A stretch of DNA of 64,000 nucleotides from Escherichia coli (GTDB lineage: Bacteria > Pseudomonadota > Gammaproteobacteria > Enterobacterales > Enterobacteriaceae): NCBI RefSeq assembly GCF_024502345.1, contig NZ_JALDNN010000003.1. One strand, given 5' to 3'. A model generated the notes under the pieces. That model had not been told where the DNA came from and did not search any database. It worked only from the letters and a program-made list of their open reading frames with translations. The first letter of the stretch is position 1; each line of letters opens with the position of its first letter. Positions 47,569 to 63,668 of the stretch are shown in pieces. The translations under genes were made by a program, and so were the position numbers.

Positions 47569-48388
47569 GGCACTGTTGCAAATAGTCGGTGGTGATAAAC
47601 TTATCATCCCCTTTTGCTGATGGAGCTGCACATGAACCCATTCAAAGGCCGGCATTTTCAGCGTGACATCATTCTGTGGGCCGTACGCTGGTACTGCAAA
47701 TACGGCATCAGTTACCGTGAGCTGCAGGAGATGCTGGCTGAACGCGGAGTGAATGTCGATCACTCCACGATTTACCGCTGGGTTCAGCGTTATGCGCCTG
47801 AAATGGAAAAACGGCTGCGCTGGTACTGGCGTAACCCTTCCGATCTTTGCCCGTGGCACATGGATGAAACCTACGTGAAGGTCAATGGCCGCTGGGCGTA
47901 TCTGTACCGGGCCGTCGACAGCCGGGGCCGCACTGTCGATTTTTATCTCTCCTCCCGTCGTAACAGCAAAGCTGCATACCGGTTTCTGGGTAAAATCCTC
48001 AACAACGTGAAGAAGTGGCAGATCCCGCGATTCATCAACACGGATAAAGCGCCCGCCTATGGTCGCGCGCTTGCTCTGCTCAAACGCGAAGGCCGGTGCC
48101 CGTCTGACGTTGAACACCGACAGATTAAGTACCGGAACAACGTGATTGAATGCGATCATGGCAAACTGAAACGGATAATCGGCGCCACGCTGGGATTTAA
48201 ATCCATGAAGACGGCTTACGCCACCATCAAAGGTATTGAGGTGATGCGTGCACTACGCAAAGGCCAGGCCTCAGCATTTTATTATGGTGATCCCCTGGGC
48301 GAAATGCGCCTGGTAAGCAGAGTTTTTGAAATGTAAGGCCTTTGAATAAGACAAAAGGCTGCCTCATCGCTAACTTTGCAACAGTGCC
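47569..48388 (+). mobile_element. IS26 copy 2
   Basis: 820 bp with 14-bp IRs GGCACTGTTGCAAA / TTTGCAACAGTGCC; Tnp identical to copy 3 in translation. Confidence 0.95.
47632..48336 (+). CDS. tnpA: IS26 transposase Tnp26
   Basis: 234-aa IS6-family transposase beginning MNPFKGRHFQRDIILWAV. Confidence 0.95.
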   Translation: MNPFKGRHFQRDIILWAVRWYCKYGISYRELQEMLAERGVNVDHSTIYRWVQRYAPEMEKRLRWYWRNPSDLCPWHMDETYVKVNGRWAYLYRAVDSRGRTVDFYLSSRRNSKAAYRFLGKILNNVKKWQIPRFINTDKAPAYGRALALLKREGRCPSDVEHRQIKYRNNVIECDHGKLKRIIGATLGFKSMKTAYATIKGIEVMRALRKGQASAFYYGDPLGEMRLVSRVFEM

Positions 48389-48709
48389 GAAGAAACAACC
48401 GCGTACTGGATGATTACCCCACCAAAAGGGAAAATATTAGGCGTTGTCAAAGGGAAACCTGCGTGGGTTGATATTCCTCCGCCAACACAGGAAGAGCTGA
48501 TCCAGGTCGCTGAGCGTGAGAAAAAGCGACTAATTAATGTGGCTAACGACTTCATTAATAGTAAACAATGGCCTGGTAAAGCGGCAATCAAACGACTGAA
48601 AGACAATGAACTGGTGCAATACAATCTGTGGCTTGATTATCTTGATTACCTTGAATCAACAGACGCATCAACAGCACCTGATATTGACTGGCCTGAGATG
48701 CCAATATAG
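48389..48709 (+). pseudogene. phage tail-fibre assembly protein (Tfa) C-terminal fragment, 5' end removed by IS26
   Basis: C-terminal ...LWLDYLDYLESTDASTAPDIDWPEMPI matches the conserved Tfa C-terminus (..VDTSTAPDIEWP..) recalled from memory; reading frame abuts the IS26 end. Confidence 0.6.
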
Positions 48710-48819
48710 GAACCTTTTGTGGATTGAGATTTTTAATGTCAGCGAAGCTCTTCGTCAAAAGTGAAACTCTGATAACCTGGTTCTACTGACGAACAGAAGG
48801 ATAAGCAGGAGATCGCTTT

Positions 48820-49380
48820 ATGATTATTGGGTATGCACGAGTATCAAGTAACCATCAGGACACCGAGCTTCAGATGCAGGCGCTCAGAGCTGCTGGCTGT
48901 AAGTTAATTTTTGAGGAAAAGGCTTCTGGCCGTAAGACGAACCGACCAATTTTGAAGAAAGTGGTTGAGATGCTTGAACCCGGTGACGAGCTGGTCATCT
49001 GGAAGCTGGATCGTATCGGTCGCAATGTGCTGCACGCATTATTGACGTTTCAGAGCCTCGCAGAACGCAATGTTAACATCCGTTCTATTACTGATGGCGT
49101 TGACCTGAGTACCGCCAGTGGGCGCTATAACTTCCGTAATATTCTCTCTGCGGCACAATATGAGTCTGATCTGAATAGTGAACGCACTTTGGCGGGGTTA
49201 GCGGTTGCCCGCGCTAAGGGGAGGATTGGCGGACGTAAGCCTAAGTTCACTAATGAGCACTGGGATGCGTTTGAACGGGAAATTAAGTCCGGCTGCTCAC
49301 ATCGTGATATAGCTCTCAAATATGGAGTCGGCCTGTCGACTCTCTACAAACGTTATCCGGCTCAGCAAGAGCATCAGTAA
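48820..49380 (+). CDS. serine recombinase, DNA invertase family (Gin/Hin/Pin-like)
   Basis: 186 aa; MIIGYARVSSNHQDTELQ ... GRIGGRKPKF ... LSTLYKRYPA parallels Mu Gin (MLIGYVRVSTNDQNTDLQ ... GRIGGRPPKL ... LSTLYKKHPA). Confidence 0.85.
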   Translation: MIIGYARVSSNHQDTELQMQALRAAGCKLIFEEKASGRKTNRPILKKVVEMLEPGDELVIWKLDRIGRNVLHALLTFQSLAERNVNIRSITDGVDLSTASGRYNFRNILSAAQYESDLNSERTLAGLAVARAKGRIGGRKPKFTNEHWDAFEREIKSGCSHRDIALKYGVGLSTLYKRYPAQQEHQ

Positions 49381-49389
49381 ACACTCTTT

Positions 49390-49500
49390 GCGTTCATTTT
49401 TGCACTGTGCAGAATGTGTCTTTTTGGCACCTTCCGACAGTGCAAAATTTATCGCGTTTTTGTGCAAAAAAAATCGCCGCGCTACAAAACGTGTGCTATA
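49390..49500. repeat. cluster of TTTTGCAC-containing repeats in both orientations (possible Mu-like transposable-phage end sites)
   Basis: TCATTTTTGCACTGTGCAG, CGACAGTGCAAAATTT and GTTTTTGTGCAAAAAAAATCGC lie just downstream of the invertase gene; related motif recurs near 52410-52475; coordinates approximate. Confidence 0.35.
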
Positions 49501-49622
49501 CTTGTGCTCATGCGGTTGGATTTCCTATCCCCCCGACCCGCGCTGCGGCGGGCCGAAAAATCCCAGGGATGGGTTTTTTCGGTGTTTTCCTCGTTGGCAC
49601 ATTCAAGAGTAAGGAGCGTTCC

Positions 49623-50231
49623 ATGAAGCTGTATTACACCCCCGGCGCCTGTTCCATGGCCCCGCACATCGCCCTGCGCGAAGCCGGCCTGAAATTCGAC
49701 CTGGAAAAGGTCGACCTGATGACCAAGAAAACCGAATCGGGCGCCGACTTCACCGCCATCAATCCCAAAGGCTACGTGCCGGCGCTGCAGCTCGACAACG
49801 GCCAGGTGCTGACCGAGGTCGGCGTGGTGCTGCAATACATCGCCGACCAGAAGCCGGGCAGCGGACTGGCCCCGGCCGCCGGCACGCTCGAGCGCTACCG
49901 CCTGATGGAGATGCTGAATTTCATCTCCACCGAGCTGCACAAGAACTTCGGTCCGCTGTTCAACCCGGCGGCCGGCGACGACGCCAAGAAAGCAGCCATC
50001 GAGATGATCGGCAAGCGCCTTGGCTACCTCGACCAGCAGCTGGCCGGCAAGCAGTATCTGCTCGGTGACACCTTCACGGTGGCCGACTGCTACCTCGCCA
50101 CCATGCTCGGCTGGTGCCAGTACGCCAAGCTCGACCTGTCGGCCTGGCCGAACATCGGCGCTTACGCCGGCCGCGTGATGAGCCGCCCGGCGGTGATCGA
50201 GACGATGAAGGCCGAAGGCCTGATGGGCTGA
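49623..50231 (+). CDS. glutathione S-transferase
   Basis: ATG at 49623 with AAGGAG upstream; 202 aa; GST N- and C-terminal domain blocks (MKLYYTPGACSMAPHIALREAGL..., DTFTVADCYLATML); high GC. Confidence 0.8.
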   Translation: MKLYYTPGACSMAPHIALREAGLKFDLEKVDLMTKKTESGADFTAINPKGYVPALQLDNGQVLTEVGVVLQYIADQKPGSGLAPAAGTLERYRLMEMLNFISTELHKNFGPLFNPAAGDDAKKAAIEMIGKRLGYLDQQLAGKQYLLGDTFTVADCYLATMLGWCQYAKLDLSAWPNIGAYAGRVMSRPAVIETMKAEGLMG

Positions 50232-50314
50232 GGGCCACCTGCCGATGCGGCGCGGGTCACGCCCGCGCCGCACGGCGTCAATCCATACCCCCCATCGATT
50301 CCCCAGGAGCCCCC

Positions 50315-51106
50315 ATGCTCGTCGAACGCATCTGGACCGGTAATTCGTACCGCAACTTCAACTACCTGATCGCCTGCCCCGAGACCGGCGAAGCGCTGGC
50401 GATCGATCCGCTGGACCATGAAAAAACCCTGAACACGGCCAGGGTCAAGGGCTGGCAGATCACGCAGATCCTCAACACGCACGAGCACCACGACCACACC
50501 GGCGGCAACGCGGCCGTGGTGGCGGCCACCGGCGCCAAGGTGATCGCGCACCACAAGGCCGCGGGCAAGATCGAAGGCATGGACCGCGGCGTGAAGGCCG
50601 GGGACGTGATCAAGGTCGGCCGGCACATCGAACTGGAATGCCTGGACACGCCCGGCCACACGATGTGCCACATCTGCCTGCGCTCGCACACCGACGAGCC
50701 GGCGCTGTTCTCCGGCGACACGCTGTTCAACGCGGGCGCGGGCAACGTGCACTACGGCGGCAGCGTGGACGAGCTCTACACCACCTTCGTGCAGCAGCTC
50801 GCGAAGCTGCCGGAGAACACCCGCGTCTACCCGGGGCACGACTACATCGAGAACAACCTGCGCTTCACGCTCGCGCGCGAGCCCGGCAACGCGGCCGCGC
50901 AGGCATTGCTGCCGCGGGTGACCGGGCATGACCCGGCCACTTCGGTGGTCACCACGCTGGCCGAGGAGAAGCGCTTCAACACCTTCTTCCGCCTGGCCAG
51001 CCCCGAGGTGATCGCCAAGCTGCGCGAGAGCTTTCCCGAGCTGCCGGAACAGCCCGACGCGAAGACCGTGTTCACCAAGCTGCGCGAGCTGCGCAACCAG
51101 TGGTGA
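50315..51106 (+). CDS. MBL-fold metallo-hydrolase (hydroxyacylglutathione hydrolase / glyoxalase II-like)
   Basis: ATG at 50315 with CAGGAG upstream; metal-binding motif THEHHDHTGG; ~263 aa; high GC. Confidence 0.75.
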   Translation: MLVERIWTGNSYRNFNYLIACPETGEALAIDPLDHEKTLNTARVKGWQITQILNTHEHHDHTGGNAAVVAATGAKVIAHHKAAGKIEGMDRGVKAGDVIKVGRHIELECLDTPGHTMCHICLRSHTDEPALFSGDTLFNAGAGNVHYGGSVDELYTTFVQQLAKLPENTRVYPGHDYIENNLRFTLAREPGNAAAQALLPRVTGHDPATSVVTTLAEEKRFNTFFRLASPEVIAKLRESFPELPEQPDAKTVFTKLRELRNQW

Positions 51107-51151
51107 GCAGCGGCCGGCGCCGGCCCCTTACTTCAGCGTGAACCGCACGGT

Positions 51152-52165
51152 GTGCACTTCCATGTCTGCGCAGTCGATGGCGTGTTTGAGGAAGTGGCGG
51201 GCGAGGAGGGCGATGCTGCTGATGCAGCTTCTCAAAGCTCACCATCGCGCATCATCTTCCACCCCGCCACCGGCGTGACTGCGGATGCCGTGGGTCAGGT
51301 GCAGGCCAGCTTACGCAAACGCATCCTGCGCGCCTTTGTCGGACGGGGCCTGCTGGAGAGTTTCGAGGCCCAAGAGATGCTGGGCTACAAGCACAGCGGG
51401 TTTTCGGTGGACACCAGCGTGTGCATAGCGGCGCACGACCGCGCCGGGCTGGAGCGGCTGCTGCGCTACTGCGCCCGCCCGCCGTTTGCCATGGAGCGGC
51501 TGCGCAAAGCGGGCAGCGAGCTGGTCTACCGCTGCGCCAAGCAGCACAGCGAGCCCGGCAGCCTGCCTCACAACAAGCGCGGCGTAAAGGCCGATGAGAT
51601 CACCCTCACCCCGCTGGAGCTGATTGAACGTATCGCCAAGCTGGTGCCCCCGCCGCGCACGCACCGCCACCGCTACTTTGGCGTGCTGGCACCGAACTCA
51701 CCCTTGAGGCCTGCCGTCACGGCGCTGGCGCGTGATGCAGCGGTGAAACCGGCGCAGGTGCAAGCCGAGCCAGCCAGCACGGCTGCAGGCGAGGGCGCAC
51801 TTGGGGTAAGAAGCCCACTGCCAACCCAGACCGAGCCCGCCCAGCCGGTGCCACCCAAGCGCCCGGCGCACTATTTGTGGGCGGTGCTGATGGCCCGTAT
51901 CTACGAGGTGTTCCCGCTGCTGTGCCCCATCTGCGGCGGGCAAATGCACATCATCGCCTTCATCACACACAGTGCCGATATCCGCCAAATACTGGAGCAC
52001 ATCGGGGTGGAGACGGAGCCGCCGCACATCACCCCGGCACGCGGGCCGCCACTGTGGGACGAGTGCGACGCGCAAGCCGCAGAGGGCGTGGAGCCAGCCC
52101 CAGACTGGGATGAAGCGACCCAACCGGCCCCGGACTTCGAGGTCGATCAGCGCGTCAGTTGGTAG
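51152..52165 (+). pseudogene. IS91-family (rolling-circle, HUH) transposase, C-terminal fragment
   Basis: No credible N-terminus; retains blocks HFHVCAVDGVF, RYFGVLAPNSPLR and zinc-ribbon-like LCPICGGQMHIIAFIT followed by ILEHIGV..PP, as recalled for IS91-family transposase C-termini. Confidence 0.55.
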
Positions 52166-52399
52166 GGTGGCAACAGCGGTTAACAGTGGTTTTGCCAACG
52201 TTGCGAGGCAGCGCTGCGCCTGTCACCGCCAAAAACGGGTCATACCGAAAAATCTCGGGCAACTGGCTTTGAGAAATCAACCCAGCAGTCCCCTGTGTGC
52301 ATGCCTGAGACGCCCCAAACTGTGGGGAGGTGATCGTTTTTGCATGGGGGAGAGGTCTTGATAAAATGCCGGGAGGGCTTGCGGTAAGCGAGATTGAGA

Positions 52400-52480
52400 G
52401 AAAAACTGAGTTTTGCACTACTAAAAAAGAAATGAGAAAAAATAGCTATTTTTGCGTTTAATTTTGCACTTTTATGAAAG
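52400..52480. repeat. TTTTGCAC-containing direct repeats upstream of the Mu-like c/ner module (possible transposable-phage left-end sites)
   Basis: GAGTTTTGCACTACTAAAAAAGAAA and TAATTTTGCACTTTTATGAAAG about 45 bp apart; same core motif as the 49.4-kb cluster; coordinates approximate. Confidence 0.3.
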
Positions 52481-52582
52481 TCTTTAGATCCGTTTTAAAG
52501 ACCGTTTAAGCATTTATCAATGCCAGGCACTATACCGTATAGTAGGTTGGTATGTAAGAAGTTGGCTCTGACACCATCTAGC

Positions 52583-53215
52583 TTAAACGGCCTTCTTGTC
52601 TTCACTTGTTAGGCCAGATTCGGCTGCCTTCTGATCAAGTTCAGATGACCCTTTTTTCATCTGCTCATGTATTCGAAGTAAGCGCTCTTGTTCTGCTTGT
52701 GGTAGTTCTACCAGTACGCTGAGCGTATCGTTATATTTCGAGAGAAGATCTAGTACACCTCTAACCCCCATCCTTGCATAGATATCGATGAGTTTCTTTT
52801 TCTCATCGTGGTCTAATGCTTCAAAAAACATTGCCCATGTTAGAGATAAAAATTTGTCATCCTTAAGTGGCACTGCTGTAAATGCGAAAGGACTTGAGCC
52901 ATCGGTTAAACCATTCTCTATGATTGGTTGAGCCTGTCCATTGCTGCTATGAGCTTCATCCAACATGTAGACGCCATCCTTACCGGTCGCTAGCCACGCA
53001 AGGCTCACGTTTTCTATCTCTGAAATTTTCACCAGGATTTCCACACTCGGAGTGGCTGAACGTGCGAAGTAGTTGTTCAGCGTCGAGTATGGCAGGTCCC
53101 AATCTAGAGAAACTTTCCTGAGACTTCTCCCTTTGAAAAGAGACTTCATCCTATCGCGAATACTTTCTTTTCCTGATTGAGCAAAAGAAACATTCTCTTT
53201 CTTTACTGTATTCAT
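52583..53215 (-). CDS. Mu-like phage repressor c homologue (HTH)
   Basis: 210 aa; divergent from and adjacent to the ner-like gene as in phage Mu; C-terminus ...DKKAV as in Mu Repc (...KKAV); HTH-like N-terminal region. Confidence 0.55.
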   Translation of the reverse strand: MNTVKKENVSFAQSGKESIRDRMKSLFKGRSLRKVSLDWDLPYSTLNNYFARSATPSVEILVKISEIENVSLAWLATGKDGVYMLDEAHSSNGQAQPIIENGLTDGSSPFAFTAVPLKDDKFLSLTWAMFFEALDHDEKKKLIDIYARMGVRGVLDLLSKYNDTLSVLVELPQAEQERLLRIHEQMKKGSSELDQKAAESGLTSEDKKAV

Positions 53216-53397
53216 TTTCTTTTCCTTTTAACTGGTTGAAATAATTAATTAAAATTGATTTTCTCACCTGAGTTTTCTCACATGAGAAAAGAAAGAGCTT
53301 TATTTGCTTTACTCTTTCTCAAATTGGATCAATACTTATCCCAACGGATAACCCCTGCGGATTATCCGCCCGGTTAACTTTTTAGGGTAATCGAAGT

Positions 53398-53625
53398 ATG
53401 GAAATAAATGAAGTACAGCGTGACTGGCATCGCATTGATATTGTCGCCGAGCTGCACAAGCGTGGCGTCACTATGCGCGGCCTTTCCGCCAGCGCGGGAC
53501 TAAAACCCGACACGCTGAAAAATGCGCTGGCACGCTCTTATCCAAAAGGAGAGCGCATTATTGCAAATGCTCTCAATTTAGAACCCGCCAGTATCTGGCC
53601 AAGCCGTTACAACAAGGACCTGTGA
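53398..53625 (+). CDS. Ner-like DNA-binding protein (Mu Ner / Nlp family)
   Basis: 75 aa; RDWHRIDIVAELHKRGVTMRGLSASAGLKPDTLKNALARSYPKGERIIANALNLEPASIWPSRY parallels Mu Ner (RDWHRADVIAGLKKRKLSLSALSRQFGYAPTTLANALERHWPKGEQIIANALETKPEVIWPSRY). Confidence 0.75.
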   Translation: MEINEVQRDWHRIDIVAELHKRGVTMRGLSASAGLKPDTLKNALARSYPKGERIIANALNLEPASIWPSRYNKDL

Positions 53626-53742
53626 CATGTTCGTGACTGTTAACGAATTAGTTGGCGTCCCTGGACTGCCAACAACACAACAAGGACTGCGATACAGCCT
53701 TAAAAAAAGTGCAGGCAACTCCCCTGAACTGGTTCGCAAACG

Positions 53743-54562
53743 GGCACTGTTGCAAATAGTCGGTGGTGATAAACTTATCATCCCCTTTTGCTGATGGAGC
53801 TGCACATGAACCCATTCAAAGGCCGGCATTTTCAGCGTGACATCATTCTGTGGGCCGTACGCTGGTACTGCAAATACGGCATCAGTTACCGTGAGCTGCA
53901 GGAGATGCTGGCTGAACGCGGAGTGAATGTCGATCACTCCACGATTTACCGCTGGGTTCAGCGTTATGCGCCTGAAATGGAAAAACGGCTGCGCTGGTAC
54001 TGGCGTAACCCTTCCGATCTTTGCCCGTGGCACATGGATGAAACCTACGTGAAGGTCAATGGCCGCTGGGCGTATCTGTACCGGGCCGTCGACAGCCGGG
54101 GCCGCACTGTCGATTTTTATCTCTCCTCCCGTCGTAACAGCAAAGCTGCATACCGGTTTCTGGGTAAAATCCTCAACAACGTGAAGAAGTGGCAGATCCC
54201 GCGATTCATCAACACGGATAAAGCGCCCGCCTATGGTCGCGCGCTTGCTCTGCTCAAACGCGAAGGCCGGTGCCCGTCTGACGTTGAACACCGACAGATT
54301 AAGTACCGGAACAACGTGATTGAATGCGATCATGGCAAACTGAAACGGATAATCGGCGCCACGCTGGGATTTAAATCCATGAAGACGGCTTACGCCACCA
54401 TCAAAGGTATTGAGGTGATGCGTGCACTACGCAAAGGCCAGGCCTCAGCATTTTATTATGGTGATCCCCTGGGCGAAATGCGCCTGGTAAGCAGAGTTTT
54501 TGAAATGTAAGGCCTTTGAATAAGACAAAACGCTGCCTCATCGCTAACTTTGCAACAGTGCC
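53743..54562 (+). mobile_element. IS26 copy 3
   Basis: 820 bp with the same 14-bp IRs; interrupts a molybdoenzyme gene on its right side. Confidence 0.95.
53806..54510 (+). CDS. tnpA: IS26 transposase Tnp26
   Basis: Identical in translation to copy 2. Confidence 0.95.
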   Translation: MNPFKGRHFQRDIILWAVRWYCKYGISYRELQEMLAERGVNVDHSTIYRWVQRYAPEMEKRLRWYWRNPSDLCPWHMDETYVKVNGRWAYLYRAVDSRGRTVDFYLSSRRNSKAAYRFLGKILNNVKKWQIPRFINTDKAPAYGRALALLKREGRCPSDVEHRQIKYRNNVIECDHGKLKRIIGATLGFKSMKTAYATIKGIEVMRALRKGQASAFYYGDPLGEMRLVSRVFEM

Positions 54563-55246
54563 GTTTTACTTTCCCGCACAATCAACAAGCTGGAGCCGGG
54601 TTCTTGCACATTCCCGCAGGAGTTCAATCATAAGCGTTGGCTGGACCAGGAATTCAATGACGGAATGGCCAAAATGTTTGGCATCTCCTCATGGGATGAC
54701 TTACTGGATGGCCCGAAAAAAGCCATTTTGCCGAGTTCTGCGGCCTGGTATGACCGCAAATTTAAAACCCCCTCAGGAAAGTTTGAGTTCAGATCTGAGC
54801 TGTGTGAGAAAAATGGCCATACGGCGCTGCCGGAATACAAACCGGAGGCGAAAAGCACGCTGCCATTCCACTTGTTTACACCGCATGTGCAGTTCGGTAT
54901 CCATTCCCAATTTATCAACCTTGACTGGATGCAGGTCTTCTATCCGGAGCCGTTTGTCTATATGCATCCGATTTCCGCAGAAAAAAGAGGCATTGCCGAA
55001 AACGACCTGGTGAAAGTGTTTAACACCGTAGGTGAAGTAGAACTGCGTGCGAAGGTGACCGCTAACGTTCCGGAAGATTTCCTGGTGATGTACGAGGCGT
55101 GGTTCCCGAAAAGGAAATACAACGTTCAAAACGTGGTGGCAGATACCCCAGCCGATATGGGGTTGATGAAAACCGGTGCGCCAGGTGCGGCTATCCACAG
55201 TCAGTTTGCGGACATCATTTTGATCAGTAAAGGAGCAGCGGCATGA
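54563..55246 (+). pseudogene. DMSO-reductase-family molybdopterin oxidoreductase catalytic subunit, 3' fragment (5' part removed by IS26)
   Basis: Frame encodes the C-terminal molybdopterin-dinucleotide-binding region (...VKVFNTVGEVELRAKVTANVPEDFLVMYEAWFP...); followed by Fe-S and anchor subunit genes. Confidence 0.65.
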
Positions 55247-55800
55247 GACGCGCGTTTTTAGTTAATAGCGATAAATGCATCGGCTGCCGTGGCTGTGCAA
55301 TGGCGTGTAAGAGTTTTAACCAGTTGGAACCTGAACGTTTCTGGCGCTATGTCTACCCGCTGGATAAAGAAATTTATCCGCATGAAGAGCGGGCGTTCTA
55401 TTCGCTGGCCTGTAACCACTGCGAAAACCCGGCCTGTCTGGCGGCGTGTCCGGTAGAGGCGTACACCAAGCGTGAAGATGGTGTCGTGGTGCATAACCCA
55501 GAGCGCTGTATTGGATGCAAAAACTGTATCCGCAACTGCCCATACGGTGCGCCGCGTTTTAATGAGGAGACGAAGAAAGCGGAAAAATGCAGCATGTGCT
55601 ACGAGCGCCTTGATGTTGGTATGCAACCGGCTTGCGTGAATGCCTGTCCGGTAGGTGCGCTGACGCTTATCGATCTGGATGCCGATCCTATACCTGACAA
55701 TGCCGTACAGTATCCGCCGGGATTCCCGCGTATGCCGCAGCTTAATCCTGGCACGCGTTTTATCCTTGCGCGTCAGCCGAAGCAGCCGGAGGGTAATTAA
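55243..55800 (+). CDS. 4Fe-4S ferredoxin-type electron-transfer subunit (DmsB-like)
   Basis: Four Cys clusters (CIGCRGCAMAC, CNHCENPACLAACP, CIGCKNCIRNCP, CSMCYERL...CVNACP); start overlaps the upstream stop. Confidence 0.8.
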   Translation: MRRAFLVNSDKCIGCRGCAMACKSFNQLEPERFWRYVYPLDKEIYPHEERAFYSLACNHCENPACLAACPVEAYTKREDGVVVHNPERCIGCKNCIRNCPYGAPRFNEETKKAEKCSMCYERLDVGMQPACVNACPVGALTLIDLDADPIPDNAVQYPPGFPRMPQLNPGTRFILARQPKQPEGN

Positions 55801-56567
55801 TGGAAAAGTATGAACTTCCGCTGGTCATTTTTACCGTATTGAGCCAGATGTCGGTTGGGATCACGCTCATTCTGACGCTACGCACGCTGCAAGGAAAACT
55901 GGAAAGCAAACGCCTGTACTGGCTGGTAAGTGGGCTGGTTCTGGCGGTGGCGTCCGTTGCAGCGATCCTGCACCTTGCGCATCCGGATCGCGCCTACGAT
56001 GCCCTGATTAACCTGCAGCACGCCTGGCTGAGCCGTGAAATTCTTGGCGCCACCTTATACGGTGCGGCGGTCGGGGTGACGTTTTTGGCAAAAGGGCACA
56101 AAGCGCCAGCTGTTCTGGCCTCTGTTCTCGGTATCGCGCTGGTGGCGGTGCAGGGGATGACCTATGCTGCCCCGGCAATGGTGGCGATCGCCAACGGTCT
56201 GACAATGCTGTTGTTCTTTATCACGGTGTGGGTGATGGGGTGTGCGGCGATTCCACTGCTTAACCTTGCACCTGCCGTTGCCGCATTACGCCAGGGGATT
56301 GTTGTGTGTATGGCGGTCATGATCGCCGCGCCCATTATCTGGCTAAGCGGCGGCACCATCATGCAGATGACGGCGCATGCCTGGCTGACGTCGCCGCTTT
56401 ATCTGGCGAGTCTGGTGTGTCTGGCGGTGGCCTTTGTGCTAAGCCGTCAGGGAGAGCGTCGCGCAAAAGCGCTTTTTGTCCTGCTGTTTGTTGGCATATT
56501 CCTGAGTCGTCTGACGTTCTTTGGCGATACGATCAGCACCATCGTGAATATCGGTCATTTGTATTGA
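55800..56567 (+). CDS. DmsC-like membrane anchor subunit
   Basis: 255 aa, about eight hydrophobic helices; translationally coupled to the Fe-S subunit gene. Confidence 0.7.
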   Translation: MEKYELPLVIFTVLSQMSVGITLILTLRTLQGKLESKRLYWLVSGLVLAVASVAAILHLAHPDRAYDALINLQHAWLSREILGATLYGAAVGVTFLAKGHKAPAVLASVLGIALVAVQGMTYAAPAMVAIANGLTMLLFFITVWVMGCAAIPLLNLAPAVAALRQGIVVCMAVMIAAPIIWLSGGTIMQMTAHAWLTSPLYLASLVCLAVAFVLSRQGERRAKALFVLLFVGIFLSRLTFFGDTISTIVNIGHLY

Positions 56568-56636
56568 TCGTGAGGTAATAAAAACCCCTGTCAGGCGTTA
56601 ACCTGACAGGGGTTTTCTTTAGCGAATCAGTGGCTG

Positions 56637-57065
56637 TTAACGAACAACCAGCACTGGCAAAGTCGCGTGGCGGACAACGCTGGAAGCGTTTGAGCCGAGC
56701 AGATGGGTGCTGATTGATGGGTTACGCGACCCAATGACAACGACATCTGCATTCAACTCTTCACCCAACTCGTTGACCACATCACGGACACTGCCAAAGC
56801 GGACGTGTTGCTTAATACGGGAAGGATCGATGCTGAAGTGACCGACCATCGTTTGCAGACGGGTTTCCGCTTCGTGTTGCAGATGCTCTTCAAAACGACG
56901 GACATCGGCCGCAAAGCGGTGCAGGCTTAAGCTCGCTGAGCCTGGCAGCACATGCAGCAGATGGATAACCCCTTTATCCTGGGCCAGAAATTCTGCATGG
57001 CGAATAGCCTTGTCGCTCAGTTCCATTTCGAATACATCAACAGGCATTATGATTGTGTTGTACAT
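56637..57065 (-). CDS. uspG: universal stress protein UspG
   Basis: [30 protein letters not shown]...[18 protein letters not shown] closely matches E. coli UspG (YbdQ); AAGGAG 7 nt upstream of this ATG; synteny with rnk. Confidence 0.85.
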
Positions 57066-57248
57066 AAACATTCTCCTTGTCATTACATGAACACATAACA
57101 GCATAGTATTAAAAATGATTCTGTCAGTCACGACACAGATTTATGTTTTGCGAACAGGAAAGAAAGCGAGGAGCAGGGAGATCTAACCGGAAAGAGGATG
57201 CAGATGCATCCTCTGTAAGATAAAGCGAGTGGCTTTGATAAGACAGAG

Positions 57249-57659
57249 TTAGCGCAGGTAGTCGCCTGCAGCTTCAGGCTGGTACTCAAGCTCAATAACT
57301 TCGAGGTGCGTTGAGGTCCCGCCTGGCAGTTCCCAGTGAATGGTATCACCAACGCGCAGCCCCAAAAGTGCAGCGCCGACAGGTGCCATTACCGAAAGCT
57401 GTGTGCTGCTGTCAGTCATAGTGGCCGGATACACCAGGGTACGCACACGGACTTCGCCATCACTCAGATTGCGGAATTTCACGCGGCTGTTCATGGTCAC
57501 GACATCGTGCGGCATGGTTTCTGGAGAACACATTTGGGCACGATCCAGCTCGGCGTTAAGGGCGTCGGCAATCGGTAAACCAGCAAACGCAGGTTGCTCC
57601 AACAGGCGGTCAATGCGTTCCGCATCGAGGTCGTTAATGATGATAGTTGGTCTGGACAT
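57249..57659 (-). CDS. rnk: regulator of nucleoside diphosphate kinase Rnk (GreA/GreB family)
   Basis: 136 aa; [44 protein letters not shown] closely matches E. coli Rnk. Confidence 0.9.
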
Positions 57660-58238
57660 TTATTACTCCATGTCGTCGATACTGCGGGTGCGCAGGTAAA
57701 TAATCCCAAAAGAAAACCCTCACCGTCAGGCGGCAAGGGTTTAGCTTTTATGATGATACTGAGACTTACCCCATGTTTGAAGTGATTTAGTTCACATTCA
57801 GGCAAATCATCAATATTGTCGCGTATGGTGTAATGTCAGTCAGTTAACGAACCTAAGGTAATAAATCTGTTGCCTCCGTCGCATTGCTACGTTCACCTTA
57901 TGTTATTCACTTCTCTGAAACCATCCTACCTGTGAACGTGTTAAGGGTACTATCGCCGTACCCTTAACAATCCCGGCGGGAGCCTGGGTTGCAAGGGAGG
58001 CGGCGGTGAGCCTCCCTTGCTCGTTCACGGGTATCAGTGCTTCAGAGAAGTGATACCGCTGAGGTGAACGGAACCCTGAGCCGGGATCACATGTTCCCTA
58101 TAATGCTTAACTGACAAGCATTACGCGTATGGTGTGATTTTAGCCGAAAAACGTGATCGTTCTCCAATTTGCATTATGCTTTTTAAGCGCTCGCTGCGGG
58201 CGCGTCAAACAACTCAGTGTTCCGCGACAGGAGATCTC

Positions 58239-59069
58239 ATGAGCCAGTACGACAAACTTACCTTGAAAGACGGCAGCTATTTGCATTTTAAAGATTGGGG
58301 AAGTGGACAGCCCATTGTCTTCAGTCATGGTTGGCCGCTGACGGCAGATGCGTTTGAGGATCAGATGTTATTCCTCGGGTCGAAAGGATTTCGTGTGATC
58401 GCCCATGACAGGCGTGGGCATGGGCGTTCGGCCCAACCCTGGGATGGTCACAATATGGAGCAGTATGCTGACGATCTGGCTGAACTTACCGCGCATCTCA
58501 ATCTTAAAGATGCCGTCCATGTCGGACACTCTACCGGCGGCGGGGAAGTGGCGCGGTATATTGGCCGCCATGGAACGCAGCGGGTCGCAAAAGCGGTGTT
58601 AATTGGCGCGGTGACGCCCATTATGATCAAGACTGACTTTAATCCAAATGGCGTGCCGAAAGAGGTATTCGATGGCATCCGTGAGGGGGTTGTGAACGAT
58701 CGCGCCGCCTTTTTCTATGAATTGACCGCTGCATTCTATGGCTACAACCGTCCTGGCGCAAAAGAGTCGAAAGCCGTCAGGGAAAGTTTTGTTGAACAGG
58801 GTTTACAAGGTTCCATCAAAGCGTTGTACGACTGTATCCACGCGTTTTCGGAAACAGATCTGCGTGAGGATCTCAAAAAGATGACCATCCCGACGCTGGT
58901 GATCCACGGTGATGACGATCAGATTGTCCCGTTTGAAACCTGCGGAAAGGTCGCGGCGGAAATACTGCCTGATTCGCAGTTGAAGGTATATGTCGGCGGC
59001 TCGCATGGCATTTGCACCACCCATAAACAACAGATCAACGGTGACCTGCTCAACTTTATTCAGTCGTAA
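58239..59069 (+). CDS. alpha/beta-fold hydrolase (non-haem haloperoxidase/esterase-like)
   Basis: ATG with AGGAG upstream; nucleophile elbow GHSTGGG; ~276 aa. Confidence 0.7.
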
Positions 59070-59165
59070 TCGTTGGCAGATTGTTCTACGCTGATCTTCT
59101 TTTTCCAGGGGGATGAGCGAAGCATAATTTGTGCTGCGCTGACGTTAACTTCAACAGGGAACGCT

Positions 59166-59789
59166 ATGTATTTCTATCAACCGTCACAGGGACACGGCTT
59201 ACCGCATGACCCGCTAAATGCCATCATTGGACCGCGCCCGATTGGTTGGATTGCGTCGCGTGACGGCAATGGTCGGCACAATCTGGCACCATACAGTTTC
59301 TTTAACTGTTTTAACTATCATCCGCCGATTATCGGTTTCGCCAGCAGCGGCTGGAAAGACAGCGTGCAGAATATTATTGAAACCGGTGAATTTGTCTGGA
59401 ACCTGACGACTCTTGAGCTGGCCACTGCGATGAACGAAACGTCAGCCAGCTTGCCGCACGGTGAGGACGAGTTTTTTGCCGCCGGGCTTAGCAAGGCAGA
59501 TAGCCGGATAGTCAACGTGCCGCGCGTGGCGCAAAGCCCGGTCAATTTTGAGTGTCGCTTATCGCAAAGCCTGCAACTAACTACCGCTGATGGCTCACCG
59601 GTTGATACCTGGCTGGTATTGGGGGAAGTGGTGGGCATCCACATCGATGAAACGCTCCTGGAGGACGGCATCTATCAGACGGCGAAAGCGAAGCCGGTAC
59701 TGCGCGCAGGTGGGCCAACGGCATATTATTCGATCAGTGAAACACACCGTTTTGATTTAGTTCGCCCGGACGCCCGAGCAAAACGCTAA
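59166..59789 (+). CDS. flavin reductase-like domain protein
   Basis: 207 aa; N-terminal region IGPRPIGWIASRDGNGRHNLAPYSFFN typical of flavin-reductase-like FMN-binding proteins. Confidence 0.6.
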   Translation: MYFYQPSQGHGLPHDPLNAIIGPRPIGWIASRDGNGRHNLAPYSFFNCFNYHPPIIGFASSGWKDSVQNIIETGEFVWNLTTLELATAMNETSASLPHGEDEFFAAGLSKADSRIVNVPRVAQSPVNFECRLSQSLQLTTADGSPVDTWLVLGEVVGIHIDETLLEDGIYQTAKAKPVLRAGGPTAYYSISETHRFDLVRPDARAKR

Positions 59790-59830
59790 GCTTACGGACC
59801 GACGCCAGCTTGCAGCGTCGGTCGCAAGTT

Positions 59831-60637
59831 TCAATATCCCACTTTGTCGATAATAAACTGTTTACCGCAGATACCTGGATGCGGTTGCGGTAAGAATGAC
59901 TGTGCAGATAACGTCTGGTTGATGTTGTCGGCTTTCAGGGATAACTGGATCTCAGTGAGATACGCCGGATTGCCGTGGCAGCTTAGCTTCACAGCTTTGA
60001 CGTTCTCTTTGCCCCAGCTTTTGGCAACTGCGGCGTCAAATGCGTTACGGCTGACAGTTTTGCCGTAGTTTTCCGCCAGGAATTTGCCCACCTCGCTGTT
60101 CTTAACCTCATTATTCAGCCGTACCATCGTGCCAAAGTACGCGTCGGGATCAAAACCGAAACACGCGCCATGTTTGGCATACTCGTAACGTTCCAGACAG
60201 GATCTCCCTCCAGCGCCGGGCATTACGGCGCTGAGTTTTGCTGCGCTTTCCAGCGACAGCCCGGTTTCGGGGGCCGCGCATTTACGGCTGGCACGTGCTT
60301 CAGGCAGGTTGGGAATAGGGCGAGTCGCGCAGCCAAAACGCATCCAGCGGCGGTTGTCGACTCCACGGGCGGCAATGGATTTAGGCAGGCTGGGCCATAA
60401 ACCGTGAACGGTCAGGAAATCCGCTTTGTCTGCGCTCTCTTTTTGTAAACGACATTCGTCAGGCTCCTGACGATTACGCTCGTGTTGGCTCTGACAAAAT
60501 CCGGTTTGCCAGGAGAGGGCCAGCACGTAGCTGTCAAAATCAGTGTATTGTTTTGCCTGAAGTTCATCGGCCTGAGCTGCAGAAACTGGCAGCAGAAGCG
60601 CTGCCAGTAATGAAGAATAACGCCATGTTGATGTCAT
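59831..60637 (-). CDS. rna: ribonuclease I (RNase T2 family)
   Basis: 268 aa with signal peptide; RNase T2 catalytic block FLTVHGLWP; synteny rnk ... rna-citT as in E. coli. Confidence 0.85.
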   Translation of the reverse strand: MTSTWRYSSLLAALLLPVSAAQADELQAKQYTDFDSYVLALSWQTGFCQSQHERNRQEPDECRLQKESADKADFLTVHGLWPSLPKSIAARGVDNRRWMRFGCATRPIPNLPEARASRKCAAPETGLSLESAAKLSAVMPGAGGRSCLERYEYAKHGACFGFDPDAYFGTMVRLNNEVKNSEVGKFLAENYGKTVSRNAFDAAVAKSWGKENVKAVKLSCHGNPAYLTEIQLSLKADNINQTLSAQSFLPQPHPGICGKQFIIDKVGY

Positions 60638-60747
60638 GATGATTTCGGATACTTATATAAATTCTGAATATCATCTATTTAATCATAAAAAATGCCAGTC
60701 AGGTTTAGCTGACTGGCATCATTTTCATCAGGTGTGAACCGAAATGA

Positions 60748-62211
60748 TTAGCTCCACATCGCCAGAATCGGCCAGCCGACCAGCAGAAGCATAGAGATGT
60801 AGATAACGCCGAAGATAGCACCCAGACGCCAGTAGTCTTTGGACTTCACATAACCACAGCCGTAGATGATAACGCCAGGGCCTGTTGCATATGGAGTCAG
60901 ACAGCCCATGATACCGATGGACAGTACCAGCAGGATACACAGGTGTTCCATCGGCACGCCCGGGATACCTTTACCGACAGCCAGAATAACCGGCAGCATG
61001 GTGGCAGTGTGTGCAGAAAGGCTGGCAAACAGGTAGTGAGCAAAGTAGAACACCAGCACCAGCACGATTACGGTCGCGTTAGGCGAGAAGCCTTCCAGGT
61101 GCGTGCTCATGGTGTTGGCGAACCAGTCGATGAAGCCTGAACGGGTTAAACCATTCGCCATAACGACCAGCGTGGCGAGGTTAACCAGGGTGTTCCATGC
61201 GCTGTTATAGCGGGTAATGTCTTTCCACGGTACCACATGCAGCGCCAGCATCAGGGAGACAGCAAGCAAACCCACTGCGGTTGCATCAATCAGTTTACCA
61301 CCGAAGACCCACAGGCCCAGGCTGAGCAGAACCAGACCGATCAGCGTTATCTCTTTACGGGTCAATTTACCCATGCCTTTCAGTTCATCACCGGCCCATG
61401 CGGCAACTTCAGCACTGTGAGTGACCTCTGGTTTGTACAGAACGTATGACAACCACGGAGCAACGATCAGCAAAATAATACCAACCGGCAGGAAGCTGAG
61501 GAACCATTGCAGCCAGCTGATTTGAATACCGGCAATTTTGTTGACGAATTCCAGACCCAGTACGTTTGGCGCAGCGCCGGTCACGAACATAGAGGAGCTC
61601 AGGCTGGTACTGATTACCATCATCCACATCAGGTATCCGCCGATACGGCGCGCGGAAGGATCGTTCGGGAATGATTTAAACAGCGGCGGCAGGTTTTTGA
61701 TAACCGGGAATACGGTACCACCGGTACGCGCGGTGTTAGACGGTGTAAACGGCGCCAGCAGAATGTCGATGATAACAATCGCATAGCCCAGCGTCAGGGT
61801 GCGTTTACCCATGAATTTCACCAGGAACAGCGCGATACGACGACCCAGACCGGTGACTTCATAACCCAGTGCGAAGATAAACGCACCAAACACCAACCAC
61901 ACGGTGGTGCTGGAGAAGCCCGCCAGACCCCATTTCAGCGCTTGCTTACCCGCTTTAAATGCCGGGTCGGCCAGTTCTGAAGCATCAAACAGCAGATAGT
62001 TGCTGCCGATAACGCAGATCGTTACGGCGATAAAGCTGATCGCTGTTGCCGGAATTGGCTCCAGGATCATACCGACGATCATCGCCACAAACACGGCAAA
62101 GTAGTGCCAGGCCTGTGGAGGCATTCCATCAGGGACGGGGATAAGAAACATGACGCCCATTACGACCAATGGGGCCAGTAACTTCCATATTTTATCTTTT
62201 GCTAAAGACAT
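60748..62211 (-). CDS. citT: citrate:succinate antiporter CitT
   Basis: 487-aa polytopic transporter; N-terminus and overall pattern match CitT; adjacent to citG/citX/citF. Confidence 0.9.
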   Translation of the reverse strand: MSLAKDKIWKLLAPLVVMGVMFLIPVPDGMPPQAWHYFAVFVAMIVGMILEPIPATAISFIAVTICVIGSNYLLFDASELADPAFKAGKQALKWGLAGFSSTTVWLVFGAFIFALGYEVTGLGRRIALFLVKFMGKRTLTLGYAIVIIDILLAPFTPSNTARTGGTVFPVIKNLPPLFKSFPNDPSARRIGGYLMWMMVISTSLSSSMFVTGAAPNVLGLEFVNKIAGIQISWLQWFLSFLPVGIILLIVAPWLSYVLYKPEVTHSAEVAAWAGDELKGMGKLTRKEITLIGLVLLSLGLWVFGGKLIDATAVGLLAVSLMLALHVVPWKDITRYNSAWNTLVNLATLVVMANGLTRSGFIDWFANTMSTHLEGFSPNATVIVLVLVFYFAHYLFASLSAHTATMLPVILAVGKGIPGVPMEHLCILLVLSIGIMGCLTPYATGPGVIIYGCGYVKSKDYWRLGAIFGVIYISMLLLVGWPILAMWS

Positions 62212-62236
62212 GTGTGTGATTCTCCGGAAAGGATCT

Positions 62237-63142: not shown

Positions 63143-63665
63143 GCAGCAGTGCCTCCATCTGAGTGAGTAAGTCGGAAAGTGCGTGGGTTTTACCCCGCGC
63201 ACAGTCGGCAGCACTTTGCTCGCACAGCAGACAGCGGCGGGCAGGGAGTGCGAAATGACGCCGGGACAGAATTTCCCCTTCAGGGGTCAGGACATCGATG
63301 TCCCATAGCCGTCCCAGCGGGTGTGAATGCTCAAGTTCAATCGTGGCGAGCTTGAGGTCGTGGGCCGGAGCCTCAATAGACAAAAGACCTTCTGGACCGC
63401 TGGCAGAAACCAGCGCTGTTTGCTCCCTGACAATCCAGGCTGATTGTTCCGCCAGCGCGAGCAAGGCGGTTACGCCGTGATTAAAGATGCGACGGGTTAA
63501 TGCGCTGTCTTTAATCGGACCCGGTGCGACTACGGTGAACGAGACCAGTGGCGCAGAGTGGCGTGTCAGCCAGTCCTGTTGCCTTGCTTGTCTCTTATCG
63601 CGGCTGGCGAGCAGCTCGGGAATCGAAACCGCGTGTTGGGTGGCGAGTTCAGGGAGCAGGTGCAT
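63111..63665 (-). CDS. citX: apo-citrate lyase phosphoribosyl-dephospho-CoA transferase CitX
   Basis: 184 aa between citF and citG, overlapping the citG start; position and size fit CitX. Confidence 0.85.
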
Positions 63666-63668
63666 GGC

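Follow-up and report, generated by a model that had tools for sequence, protein, structure and literature searches.

Two end pieces of one Mu-like prophage in swapped order around an IS91-family element and GST/GloB genes between IS26 copies in Escherichia coli

How do the right and left ends of a Mu-like phage come to lie in swapped order around foreign DNA? The question is raised by 5,354 bp (48389-53742) that form the exact interval between IS26 copies 2 and 3 in a stretch of 64,000 nucleotides from Escherichia coli contig NZ_JALDNN010000003.1, the whole of which is called the window here. A preliminary description, made from the sequence alone, had offered two explanations: a Mu-like prophage on a circular replicon, captured by IS26 and then trimmed, or two separate remnants brought together. 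The elements that it listed (IS26, tail-fibre-assembly fragment, invertase, repressor, ner and GC-rich genes) were all found where it had placed them (Table 1). Here we show that the segment consists of two end pieces of one Mu-like prophage inserted in an IS91-type element beside soil-bacterial GST/GloB genes. Its layout is IS26-tfa'-gin-attR-(46 bp-gstA-gloB-IS91')-attL-repressor-ner-A'-IS26. Phage DNA is left only at 48389-49486 and 52321-53742, the interior being replaced by the IS26 boundaries. A complete Mu-like phage is about 35-39 kb long and transposition-competent; no complete transposable genome is present in the segment. The GC content is 0.653 in the 2,834 bp of the middle (49487-52320), which hold an IS91-family end, gstA, a gloB-like gene and an IS91-family transposase gene that lacks its 5' third, as compared to 0.464 and 0.432 in the two phage parts, in keeping with the higher-GC middle described before.

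Table 1. Features of the IS26-bounded segment and its boundaries (positions in the window).
Feature	Position	Strand	Basis or remark
IS26 copy 2	47569-48388	+	left boundary; 820 bp, both terminal inverted repeats (GGCACTGTTGCAAA)
tfa', 3' fragment of tail-fibre-assembly gene, cut by IS26	48389-48709	+	phrog_188
Candidate surviving half of gix-type inversion site	48710-48735	.	start of homology; inverted repeat in L049
Gin/Hin-type serine DNA invertase gene, intact, 186 aa	48820-49380	+	phrog_125 and PDB 3UJ3
attR, right end of Mu-like phage	49381-49486	+	terminus ...CGCGCTACA
AAAC, right copy of target duplication	49487-49490	.	CTACA/AAACGtgtgc
IS91-family terminal 46 bp	49487-49532	+	ends ...GGATTTCCTATCCCC
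Glutathione S-transferase gene, gstA-type	49623-50231	+	NF007831 GstA
MBL-fold hydroxyacylglutathione-hydrolase-like gene, gloB-like	50315-51106	+	TIGR03413
IS91', 5'-truncated IS91/ISCR-family transposase gene and 3' non-coding region, phage-interrupted	51151-52320	+	profiles and full-length copies
AAAC, left copy of target duplication	52317-52320	.	ccccAAAC/TGTGGGG
attL, left end of Mu-like phage	52321-52500	+	starts TGTGGGGAGGTGATCGTTTTTGCA
Phage repressor gene, intact, 210 aa, divergent from ner	52583-53215	-	phrog_3037
ner-like gene, intact, 75 aa	53398-53625	+	Mu Ner structures and phrog_769
A', first 38 codons of MuA-like transposase gene, cut by IS26	53627-53742	+	N-terminus of L020 transposase
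IS26 copy 3	53743-54562	+	right boundary; direct orientation relative to copy 2

In the right-end module, 48410-48709 aligned to positions 87-181 only of the 207-position tail-fibre-assembly profile phrog_188 (E 1.5e-33), and tfa' is therefore a C-terminal fragment cut by IS26. Homology to Citrobacter and IMG/VR prophages begins exactly at 48710/48711. In one relative (L049) this position is the middle of a 21-nt inverted repeat, the repeats flanking a 1.86-kb segment, and the adjoining bases are probably the surviving half of a gix-type site. The invertase matched the DNA-invertase family phrog_125 (E 2.5e-69) and, over its full length (residues 1-185), the solved DNA-invertase structure 3UJ3 (E 2.3e-55). 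Its inverted partner crossover site is absent from the window because the invertible segment has been cut by IS26. The right-end homology ends at precisely 49486 in four other, unrelated contexts, namely traG of a Citrobacter plasmid, two E. coli P2-like prophages and one IMG/VR prophage. Since the invertase and right-end module are found inside P2-like prophages too, tfa and gin alone would not prove a Mu-like origin; it is proven by the phage terminus together with the shared target duplication.

The left-end module reads repressor (minus strand), ner and A', with A truncated and B absent, where an intact relative has a 685-aa phrog_310 transposase followed by a phrog_296 B-type protein. The remnant would therefore be unable to transpose. 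The repressor belongs with family phrog_3037 (E 2.6e-30), has left-end homologues of 23-38% identity in Mu-like phages infecting or resident in Yersinia, Vibrio and Pseudomonas, and finds its nearest database relative (36% identity) in the repressor at the same position of an IMG/VR prophage. It had been described as c-repressor-like. That holds for its place at the left end, divergent from ner, and it is a positional analogue of Mu c; structure comparison gave no match to any Mu repressor structure, and it looks like an HTH protein. The ner-like protein matched the Mu Ner structures 1NEQ/1NER (E 3.1e-21), EnrR (E 8e-23) and phrog_769 (E 2e-30). The 38 residues of A', a fragment which the preliminary description had missed, are identical to the N-terminus of the 685-aa transposase of a related intact prophage, L020 (phrog_310, E 2e-173); their best PDB match, the MuA I-alpha domain 1TNS, is weak (E 0.09). 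Close relatives of the left-end module were absent from the plasmid, phage, E. coli and representative-genome collections, and its immunity region differs from that of every database relative.

Both phage termini, which the preliminary description had proposed to define, could be fixed by independent flanks. They are of the TG...CA type, with TGTGGGGAGGTGATCG... at 52321 on the left and ...CGCCGCGCTACA at 49486 on the right. The left end begins likewise in the Citrobacter and IMG/VR prophages, which have different flanks, and the first 19 nt of attL are identical in the Citrobacter prophage. Eighteen of the 25 terminal bases of the left end match the inverted right end, forming imperfect terminal inverted repeats. 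The repeats described earlier in both border zones are real as clusters, but they do not amount to an overall excess: TTTTGCAY occurs 12 times in the window against 7.8 expected, and six of these copies lie within about 250 bp (49398-49469 and 52338-52469), at both ends oriented inward from the termini. Those of the left end are at 52338, 52411 and 52462; the right end has GTGCAAAA-type repeats at 49440, at 49462 and, inverted, at 49390-49405. Each phage end has three sites containing TTTTGCAY, putative motifs of the transposase-binding type; the blocks in which they lie are conserved in three prophages, unlike the diverging spacers in between. A single intact prophage (IMG/VR 2563366840_000011) carries both an invertase/right end 99.7% identical and a ner-A' region about 90% identical to those of the window. 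Both flanking modules thus derive, by sequence comparison, from one type of Mu-like transposable phage of about 34.5 kb with TG...CA ends. The Mu-like origin first suggested for both modules is borne out by these termini, by the repeated end motifs, and by repressor, ner and A' on the left and tfa and invertase on the right.

The gstA product scored 247.6 bits against NF007831, above the 198-bit cut-off, and the gene is 99.9% identical to an Azonexus plasmid copy. The gloB-like gene, at 190.5 bits, falls just short of the 200.8-bit cut-off of TIGR03413; it carries a GloB annotation in OW968028 and in the Azonexus and Burkholderia plasmids. The 337-aa open reading frame of IS91' is the C-terminal two-thirds of a transposase, a candidate for the HUH-type IS91 class, and matches the C-terminal parts of two profiles below their cut-offs (ISCR clade Ia, 75.6 bits with a cut-off of 925; IS91, 24.8 bits with a cut-off of 125). 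Full-length copies in the sequences L001 and L002 have a 3' part identical to IS91', and those of L002 are annotated as IS91 family. The same 46 bp, also identical, follow the transposase 3' region in both. Sequences diverge directly past ...CTATCCCC in four or five independent contexts, and the element boundary was placed at ...GGATTTCCTATCCCC because of these different downstream flanks. The 46-bp end is a defined terminus of the ori type downstream of the transposase gene, with a putative role as origin. On plasmids of Azonexus hydrophilus (NZ_CP151408.1) and Burkholderia contaminans (NZ_CP120952.1), gstA, gloB and IS91 are 99.9% identical and have the same 46-bp terminus; these modules differ in order (IS91-gloB-IS91'-gstA in Azonexus) and are free of the phage insertion. 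The IS91-family element probably belonged to a gstA/gloB module of betaproteobacterial type that an enterobacterium already carried.

Three uninterrupted IS91-family copies (one in L001, two in L002) read ccccAAACGtgtgc, the native sequence across the insertion point being ccccAAACGtgtgctatacttg. The window has ccccAAAC directly next to attL and AAACGtgtgctatacttg directly next to attR. By this alignment, the two junctions between phage and GC-rich DNA belong to a single insertion, which lies in the element's 3' non-coding end, 46 bp from its terminus. Because the flanks of attL and attR are contiguous in the native element and share AAAC, the earlier alternative of two separate remnants juxtaposed is excluded. 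The target duplication of the Citrobacter prophage is CCAC, and across 296 bp its rebuilt empty site is 100% identical to the intact traG of six plasmids; that of the IMG/VR prophage is CAGC. The duplication measured 4 bp in all three cases examined of this phage lineage (AAAC, CCAC, CAGC). It is reported as 5 bp in Mu and 6 bp in B3 (PMC8705779). For the window alone, it is strictly speaking conceivable that 5 bp (AAACG) were duplicated and one base was then lost, but the 4-bp overlap is, going by the three prophages, the normal target duplication of this lineage.

The GST-MBL-IS91 segment, as the preliminary description had suggested, could be traced on other plasmids. The IncL/M plasmids OW968028.1 and OW968043.1 (Enterobacter cloacae and Klebsiella pneumoniae, Madrid) are 99.95% identical to the window over 48301-52320 and have the same IS26/tfa' junction, that of OW968028 being identical, followed by attR-46 bp-gstA-gloB-IS91'. 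They differ in what follows IS91', namely the 46-bp end native to it, a partial copy of that end, a hydratase gene and another IS91 copy of full length. The region holds at least two direct IS91-family copies; attL, repressor and ner are absent from it. This arrangement represents the unrecombined (parental) right half. Since the IS26/tfa' junction is common to both arrangements, it predates the permutation, and IS26 did not independently capture an intact prophage in the lineage of the window.

IS26 copies 2 and 3 differ at one position, and a third copy (11787-12606) is inverted relative to them. Comparison of the 8-bp flanks gave no 8-bp duplication beside any IS26 copy, the flanks of copy 2 being mismatched. 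The outer flanks of the unit (GGCCAAAA and GTTTTACT) do not form an 8-bp target duplication around the whole either. Such a duplication is expected only after simple replicative insertion, and none is expected from conservative or homologous IS26 routes, which the present flanks fit. In NZ_LR890350.1 the backbone is 100% identical on both sides and IS26 stands at the same positions around a different 5.1-kb payload; hence the IS26-bounded payload is exchangeable. One metagenome contig is 100% identical to 48336-53796, and metagenome contig L063 has the same payload and IS26, with other sequence beyond IS26 copy 3.

The sequences compared show the anatomy, exactly where the phage ends, that both ends share an insertion site, that the payload can be swapped and that OW968028 has the unrecombined right half. 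The swapped order is best explained by a crossover between direct IS91-family copies flanking a prophage gutted by IS26. The segment is probably the leftover of one Mu-like insertion, permuted by that recombination and placed by IS26. A Mu-like phage (about 34.5 kb) would have inserted in the IS91-family 3' non-coding end, duplicating AAAC. IS26 activity would then have deleted everything between codon 38 of A and the middle of tfa, leaving A'-IS26-tfa'. A crossover would have followed between two direct repeats of the IS91-family 3' portion, at most 1.17 kb long and about 100% identical, of which the first stood to the left of attL and the second to the right of gloB. It would have joined the DNA right of attR to that left of attL, giving a circle with a single IS26, similar to a translocatable unit, or a tandem duplication. 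Through IS26, the product would finally have entered an IncHI1A-type plasmid, between or next to its IS26 copies, either by targeted conservative cointegration or by homologous recombination of one IS26 with another. We infer the order of these events; either a circle or a tandem duplication fits the sequence. The idea of a prophage on a circular replicon, captured by IS26 and trimmed, comes close to this account but needs amending: the circle need not have been a replicon, as recombination between direct IS91-family copies, such as those seen in OW968028, is enough, and the IS26/tfa' junction came before the permutation. The intermediate IS91-attL-repressor-ner-A'-IS26-tfa'-gin-attR occurs in no database record. 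No SNP marks the crossover point, because the IS91-family copies are virtually identical, and the IS26 steps (conservative transposition or RecA-dependent recombination) left no diagnostic scar here.

The evidence for a crossover within one molecule would equally fit one between two molecules, IS26-tfa'-gin-attR-gstA-gloB-IS91' and IS91-attL-repressor-ner-A'-IS26, both descended from the same original insertion. OW968028 proves that the first partner exists on a conjugative plasmid, as a unit of its own between IS26 copies. However, the second partner was found nowhere in the searched collections, and two descendants of one insertion would have to persist apart and then meet again; this route is unlikely. 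Improbable, too, is an insertion of the phage into a 2.83-kb circle made up of the 46-bp end, gstA, gloB and IS91', such as an IS91-family rolling-circle intermediate, which replicative Mu-type transposition or IS26 cointegration then fused into the plasmid, IS26 trimming the outer phage. The natively contiguous segment ends and the target duplication are as expected of a whole circular donor between two phage copies, IS91-family termini enclose the unit, and comparable units occur in shuffled form on the Azonexus and Burkholderia plasmids. Yet such a circle would have no replication gene and only a truncated transposase, the DNA linked to attR in OW968028 does not stop at the insertion site but runs on, as a linear array, through further IS91-end repeats and catabolic genes, and the shared IS26/tfa' junction would need to predate the fusion.

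Juxtaposition around foreign DNA by IS26 or IS91 activity, be it of two unrelated phage remnants or after a second round of replicative transposition, might be suggested by the occurrence of the tfa/invertase/right-end module in P2-like prophages and by an immunity region without close database relative next to a right end with many. But unrelated flanks would be expected of independent insertions or of a replicative one at a second site, whereas both junctions lie at the same IS91-family nucleotide and share AAAC, and the left and right ends are the matching pair of intact prophages. This origin is very improbable indeed, and for two unrelated remnants the shared insertion site is effectively a refutation.

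Under the preferred crossover between direct IS91-family copies, the segment is ordinary plasmid mosaicism, but unusually cleanly reconstructible. The genes that it keeps intact, those of repressor, ner and invertase, could still confer immunity to related phages or act in trans on invertible segments of resident prophages.

Like Mu and Mu-like prophages, for example the 34.65-kb one in traG of Citrobacter freundii pRHBSTW-00119_2 (NZ_CP056853.1, 128925-163577), the remnant has TG...CA ends, imperfect inverted repeats with three motifs per end (spaced on the left, contiguous on the right), divergent repressor and ner followed by A at the left, and tail-fibre assembly and a Gin-type invertase at the right; its Ner and Gin are homologous to the Mu proteins. 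In contrast to such prophages, only 1.1 kb and 1.4 kb of about 34.5 kb remain. It differs from Mu in a target duplication of 4 bp instead of 5, in a TTTTGCAC-type end motif and in a repressor without structural match to Mu c. The unit also resembles IS26 pseudo-compound transposons and translocatable units, in which two direct IS26 copies bound an exchangeable passenger without an 8-bp duplication. Unlike theirs, the passenger here has no resistance gene and is a circularly permuted prophage/IS91 junction pair, which would record a circular or duplicated intermediate.

The segment at 48389-53742 comprises precisely the 5,354 bp separating two IS26 copies of direct orientation, and no resistance or virulence gene was found in it. 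Profile, structure and sequence matches across the segment bore out every element of the preliminary description, which had read Mu-like remnants in permuted order around glutathione transferase, MBL-fold hydrolase and IS91' (truncated IS91-family) DNA. The 685-aa MuA-type transposase of an intact relative, IMG/VR prophage 2563366840_000011, matched phrog_310 (E 2e-173). A sequence match of the window repressor to Mu repressor structures was sought and none was obtained.

Features of the segment and of the IS26 copies in the window
Feature	Coordinates	Strand or orientation	Remarks
IS26 copies bounding the segment	47569-48388, 53743-54562	direct	
IS26, third copy	11787-12606	inverted	
Right-end phage module	48389-49486		46% GC
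Tail-fibre-assembly (tfa') fragment, C-terminal	within 48389-49486		phrog_188 profile positions 87-181 of 207
Serine invertase, intact, 186 aa	within 48389-49486		phrog_125, E 2.5e-69; DNA-invertase structure 3UJ3, E 2e-55
Phage right-end tail, 106 bp	up to 49486		closes with ...CGCGCTACA
GC-rich segment	49487-52320		2,834 bp, 65% GC
IS91-family element, final 46 bp	start of 49487-52320		
gstA-type glutathione transferase gene	in 49487-52320		score above NCBIfam cut-off
gloB-like MBL-fold hydrolase gene	in 49487-52320		score just below cut-off
IS91/ISCR-family element, 3' 1.17 kb	in 49487-52320		includes transposase C-terminal 337 aa
Left-end phage module	52321-53742		43% GC
Phage left terminus	52321		reads TGTGGGGAGGTGATCGTTTTTGCA...
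Repressor gene, intact, 210 aa	in 52321-53742	minus	phrog_3037
ner homologue, intact	in 52321-53742		Mu Ner 1NER match, E 3e-21
Transposase gene (A'), first 38 codons, cut by IS26	in 52321-53742		identical to the start of the 685-aa MuA-type transposase of the intact relative

Uninterrupted copies of the IS91-family element, one in the IncL/M plasmid OW968028 and two in an Azonexus hydrophilus plasmid (NZ_CP151408.1), read ...gacgccccAAACGtgtgctatacttgtgctcatgcggttggatttcctatcccc. In the window, ...gacgccccAAAC abuts the left end of the phage at 52320/52321, and the phage right end is followed by AAACGtgtgctatac... at 49486/49487. Since the native copies are continuous across both flanks, the GC-rich segment begins and ends with sequences that adjoin in the native element and overlap by AAAC, which is duplicated in the window at 49487-49490 and 52317-52320. 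Both phage/GC-rich junctions thus carry the signature of one transposition that duplicated 4 bp of its target, the order now being circularly permuted. Replicative transposition to a second site was ruled out, as unrelated flanks would be expected. The possibility raised in the preliminary description, that two separate, unrelated remnants had come to lie side by side, was rejected because the flanks are adjacent in the native element and share AAAC, and both junctions were shown to be one insertion; its overall reading proved largely right.

The Mu-like lineage of the window has the termini TGTGGGGAGGTGATCG... at the left and ...AAAATCGCCGCGCTACA at the right. The traG gene of a Citrobacter freundii IncFII plasmid (NZ_CP056853.1) is occupied by a Mu-like prophage of 34.65 kb that showed 97% identity at the right end, with homology ending at window 49486 and traG sequence beyond. 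Two P2-like prophages of E. coli, carrying the invertase and 106-bp tail as in the window, lost homology at the same base, as did the right end of the IMG/VR prophage. At the left end, the Citrobacter and IMG/VR prophages also open with TGTGGGGAGGTGATCGTTT, preceded by unrelated flanks. From these breaks in homology, the phage termini are resolved to a single base, 49486 at the right and 52321 at the left, and the suspected phage ends were thereby upheld by alignment. When the left ends of the three prophages were aligned, blocks at 1-24, 43-58, 91-99 and 110-150 proved conserved and the spacers between them diverged. The motif TTTTGCAY lies in conserved left blocks at 52338, 52411 and 52462, with inverted copies at 49440 and 49462 and another copy at 49398; six of the 12 copies in the window are concentrated in about 250 bp. 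At the left, about 70 bp separate a terminal site from two more sites, and at the right the sites are contiguous, a spacing that may resemble the attL/attR (left-end/right-end) layout of Mu. The 16-nt left terminus TGTGGGGAGGTGATCG was also retained in many otherwise diverged, often GC-rich, IMG/VR Mu-like contigs, where motifs of the TTTGGCAC, TTTCTGCA or TTTCTGGAC type come next; of the 32 hits, some are probably chance matches.

Target duplications are of 5 bp in Mu and 6 bp in B3 (PMC8705779). The Citrobacter prophage is flanked by ...ATGGCCAC and CCACCGGCAG..., giving the duplication CCAC, and the empty site rebuilt with a single CCAC was 100% identical over 296 bp to intact traG of six plasmids. 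The IMG/VR prophage is flanked by ...GTCAGC and CAGCGTG..., giving CAGC. Each of the three junction pairs examined thus shows a 4-bp duplication (AAAC, CCAC and CAGC), a small sample, and a 5-bp duplication was rejected, one-base shifts of the termini in either direction failing in all three. In other family members from IMG/VR the bases adjoining the termini vary, so the ends are truly TG and CA. As the Citrobacter and IMG/VR pairs also show 4 bp, AAAC of the window behaves as the normal scar of the lineage. Further pairs were sought among Klebsiella pneumoniae plasmids and IMG/VR loci. The prophage in NZ_CP098171, listed as a plasmid, is of a different subgroup with TTTGATAC end motifs and a right end ending in TA, and its flanks did not match; in NZ_CP097677, IS26 cuts the prophage on both sides and no duplication was readable; and protein-based IMG/VR loci yielded no pair, most contigs stopping inside the prophage.

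Relatives of both window modules are borne by the single IMG/VR prophage of about 34.4 kb, with identities of 99.7% for the invertase/right end, about 90% for ner-A' and 81% for the left end. These values suggest that the two modules are of one phage type. The sole difference lies in the central part of the repressor gene, as is usual in mosaic immunity regions. No close relative of the window immunity region was found in E. coli, phage, plasmid or representative-genome collections. In nucleotide searches, the left-end module (52321-53742) matched no complete E. coli genome and nothing in the phage collection, distant mode included, and had only partial matches (70-83%) in plasmids; the exact attL and attR junction patterns had no match in representative genomes.

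The canonical gix core (AAACCNAGGTTT) is absent from the window, only a half-site-like sequence being left. The intact relative carries a 1.86-kb invertible segment between 21-nt gix-like inverted repeats (5496-5516 and 7360-7380), of which the invertase-proximal half-site is the sole survivor in the window (48705-48735). Homology to relatives starts mid-site, immediately past the stop codon of tfa', suggesting an invertase-mediated exchange at the core. In the P2-like prophages of E. coli E41 (1007-1113) and ET734 (6650-6754), the window-type invertase gene and 106-bp Mu-type right end lie with the tail-fibre genes on one side and the tail-sheath gene on the other; homology ends exactly at ...CGCGCTACA. 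This right end looks like a fossil attR, and suggests that a Mu-like phage long ago inserted into a P2-like one and that recombination within the tail-fibre genes came later.

The backbone of the window is of an IncHI1A-type plasmid with a clpK/heat-resistance locus. An Australian E. coli IncHI1A plasmid (NZ_LR890350.1, 89200-95947 against window 47569-54562) matches the backbone at 100% identity to either side and carries IS26 at the identical two positions, with a different 5.1-kb payload (a ferritin-like gene, IS5 and a RelE/ParE toxin-antitoxin pair). No IS26 copy of the window has an 8-bp duplication. Thus, the payload was exchanged by IS26-mediated or IS26-homology-mediated events. Scanning metagenomes for the junction patterns revealed the identical permuted unit in two contigs, ERZ941706 NODE-1645 and ERZ941748 NODE-1067, showing that the unit circulates; neither could be its ancestor, as both show the permuted unit itself. 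Past IS26 copy 3 the latter contig has a truncated resolvase gene in place of the dmsBC-like genes of the window, so at least two contexts are known for the unit. Right of this IS26 copy, window 54563-64000 holds chromosome-type genes (dmsB/dmsC-like, citT, citG, citX, rna, rnk) whose identity to their E. coli chromosomal counterparts is only about 79%, and therefore represents captured chromosomal DNA of another enterobacterial species. Another instance of IS26 framing a transposable prophage is NZ_CP097677.1 (117096-151588), an IncFIA/IncR plasmid in which IS26-family copies lie on both sides of a nearly complete Mu-like prophage of about 33 kb, from transposase gene to tail fibres, adjoining blaSHV-12.

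Searching plasmids for the gstA-gloB-IS91' segment detected it in two IncL/M plasmids, OW968028 and OW968043, in the order IS26-tfa'-invertase-attR-46 bp-gstA-gloB-IS91' at 99.95% identity, the IS26/tfa' junction included. There IS91' keeps its native 46-bp end and is followed by a hydratase gene and a further complete IS91 copy, so that direct IS91-family repeats flank the region; this arrangement is the unrecombined right half. In OW968028.1 (10757-10830), IS91' is followed by two tandem copies of the final ~37 bp of the IS91-family terminus (tatacttgtgctcatgcggttggatttcctatcccc), a pattern that a rolling-circle element could leave through re-initiation or termination slippage. The simplest path would begin with insertion of the Mu-like phage into one IS91 copy, after which IS26 would replace the prophage interior. 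This copy, left of attL, would then cross over with a second copy right of gloB, giving a one-IS26 circle or a tandem duplication, which IS26 would incorporate into the IncHI plasmid. The IS91-family copies are essentially identical and SNP comparison located no crossover point; as the left-end module lacks close nucleotide matches, the proposed intermediate could not be found. An intermolecular IS91 crossover would be a variant of the same route. A small-donor or cointegrate origin, with the 2.83-kb unit itself a circle, matches the topology, but needs a non-replicating circle as phage target and fits OW968028 poorly.

Our literature searches found no description of this structure. The segment is mainly a worked example of plasmid mosaic assembly, with readable scars of four kinds in 5.35 kb: an IS91-family rolling-circle element with betaproteobacterial gstA/gloB, a Mu-like phage that jumped into it, gutting and moving by IS26, and a permuting recombination. 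It shows environmental catabolic-plasmid DNA arriving on IncL/M and IncHI plasmids of clinical type. Lacking resistance and virulence genes, the segment is of little practical importance; its unique junctions (49486/49487 and 52320/52321) make it a possible epidemiological marker, being already present in two metagenome assemblies. Wider interest lies solely in the consistent 4-bp duplication of the lineage and the fossil Mu-type right end in P2-like prophages. We lean cautiously to the view that this lineage, whose TGTGGGGAGGTGATCG/AAAATCGCCGCGCTACA termini are common in enterobacterial prophages, is a mechanistically distinct MuA-type branch with a 4-bp target stagger and with its right end and invertase fixed in P2-like prophages, of which the permuted remnant would be a normal junction pair. 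The 4-bp duplication, if general, would be a small but testable point on MuA-type transposases.

The segment is otherwise ordinary plasmid mosaicism, its parts being of well-known kinds: a Mu-like transposable prophage, a Gin-type invertase, an IS26 pseudo-compound structure and IS91-family modules of betaproteobacterial plasmids. As compared to a Mu-like transposable prophage, the window holds a remnant that does not transpose; its invertase is Gin-type but is without its invertible segment, and its repressor is analogous to Mu c by position.
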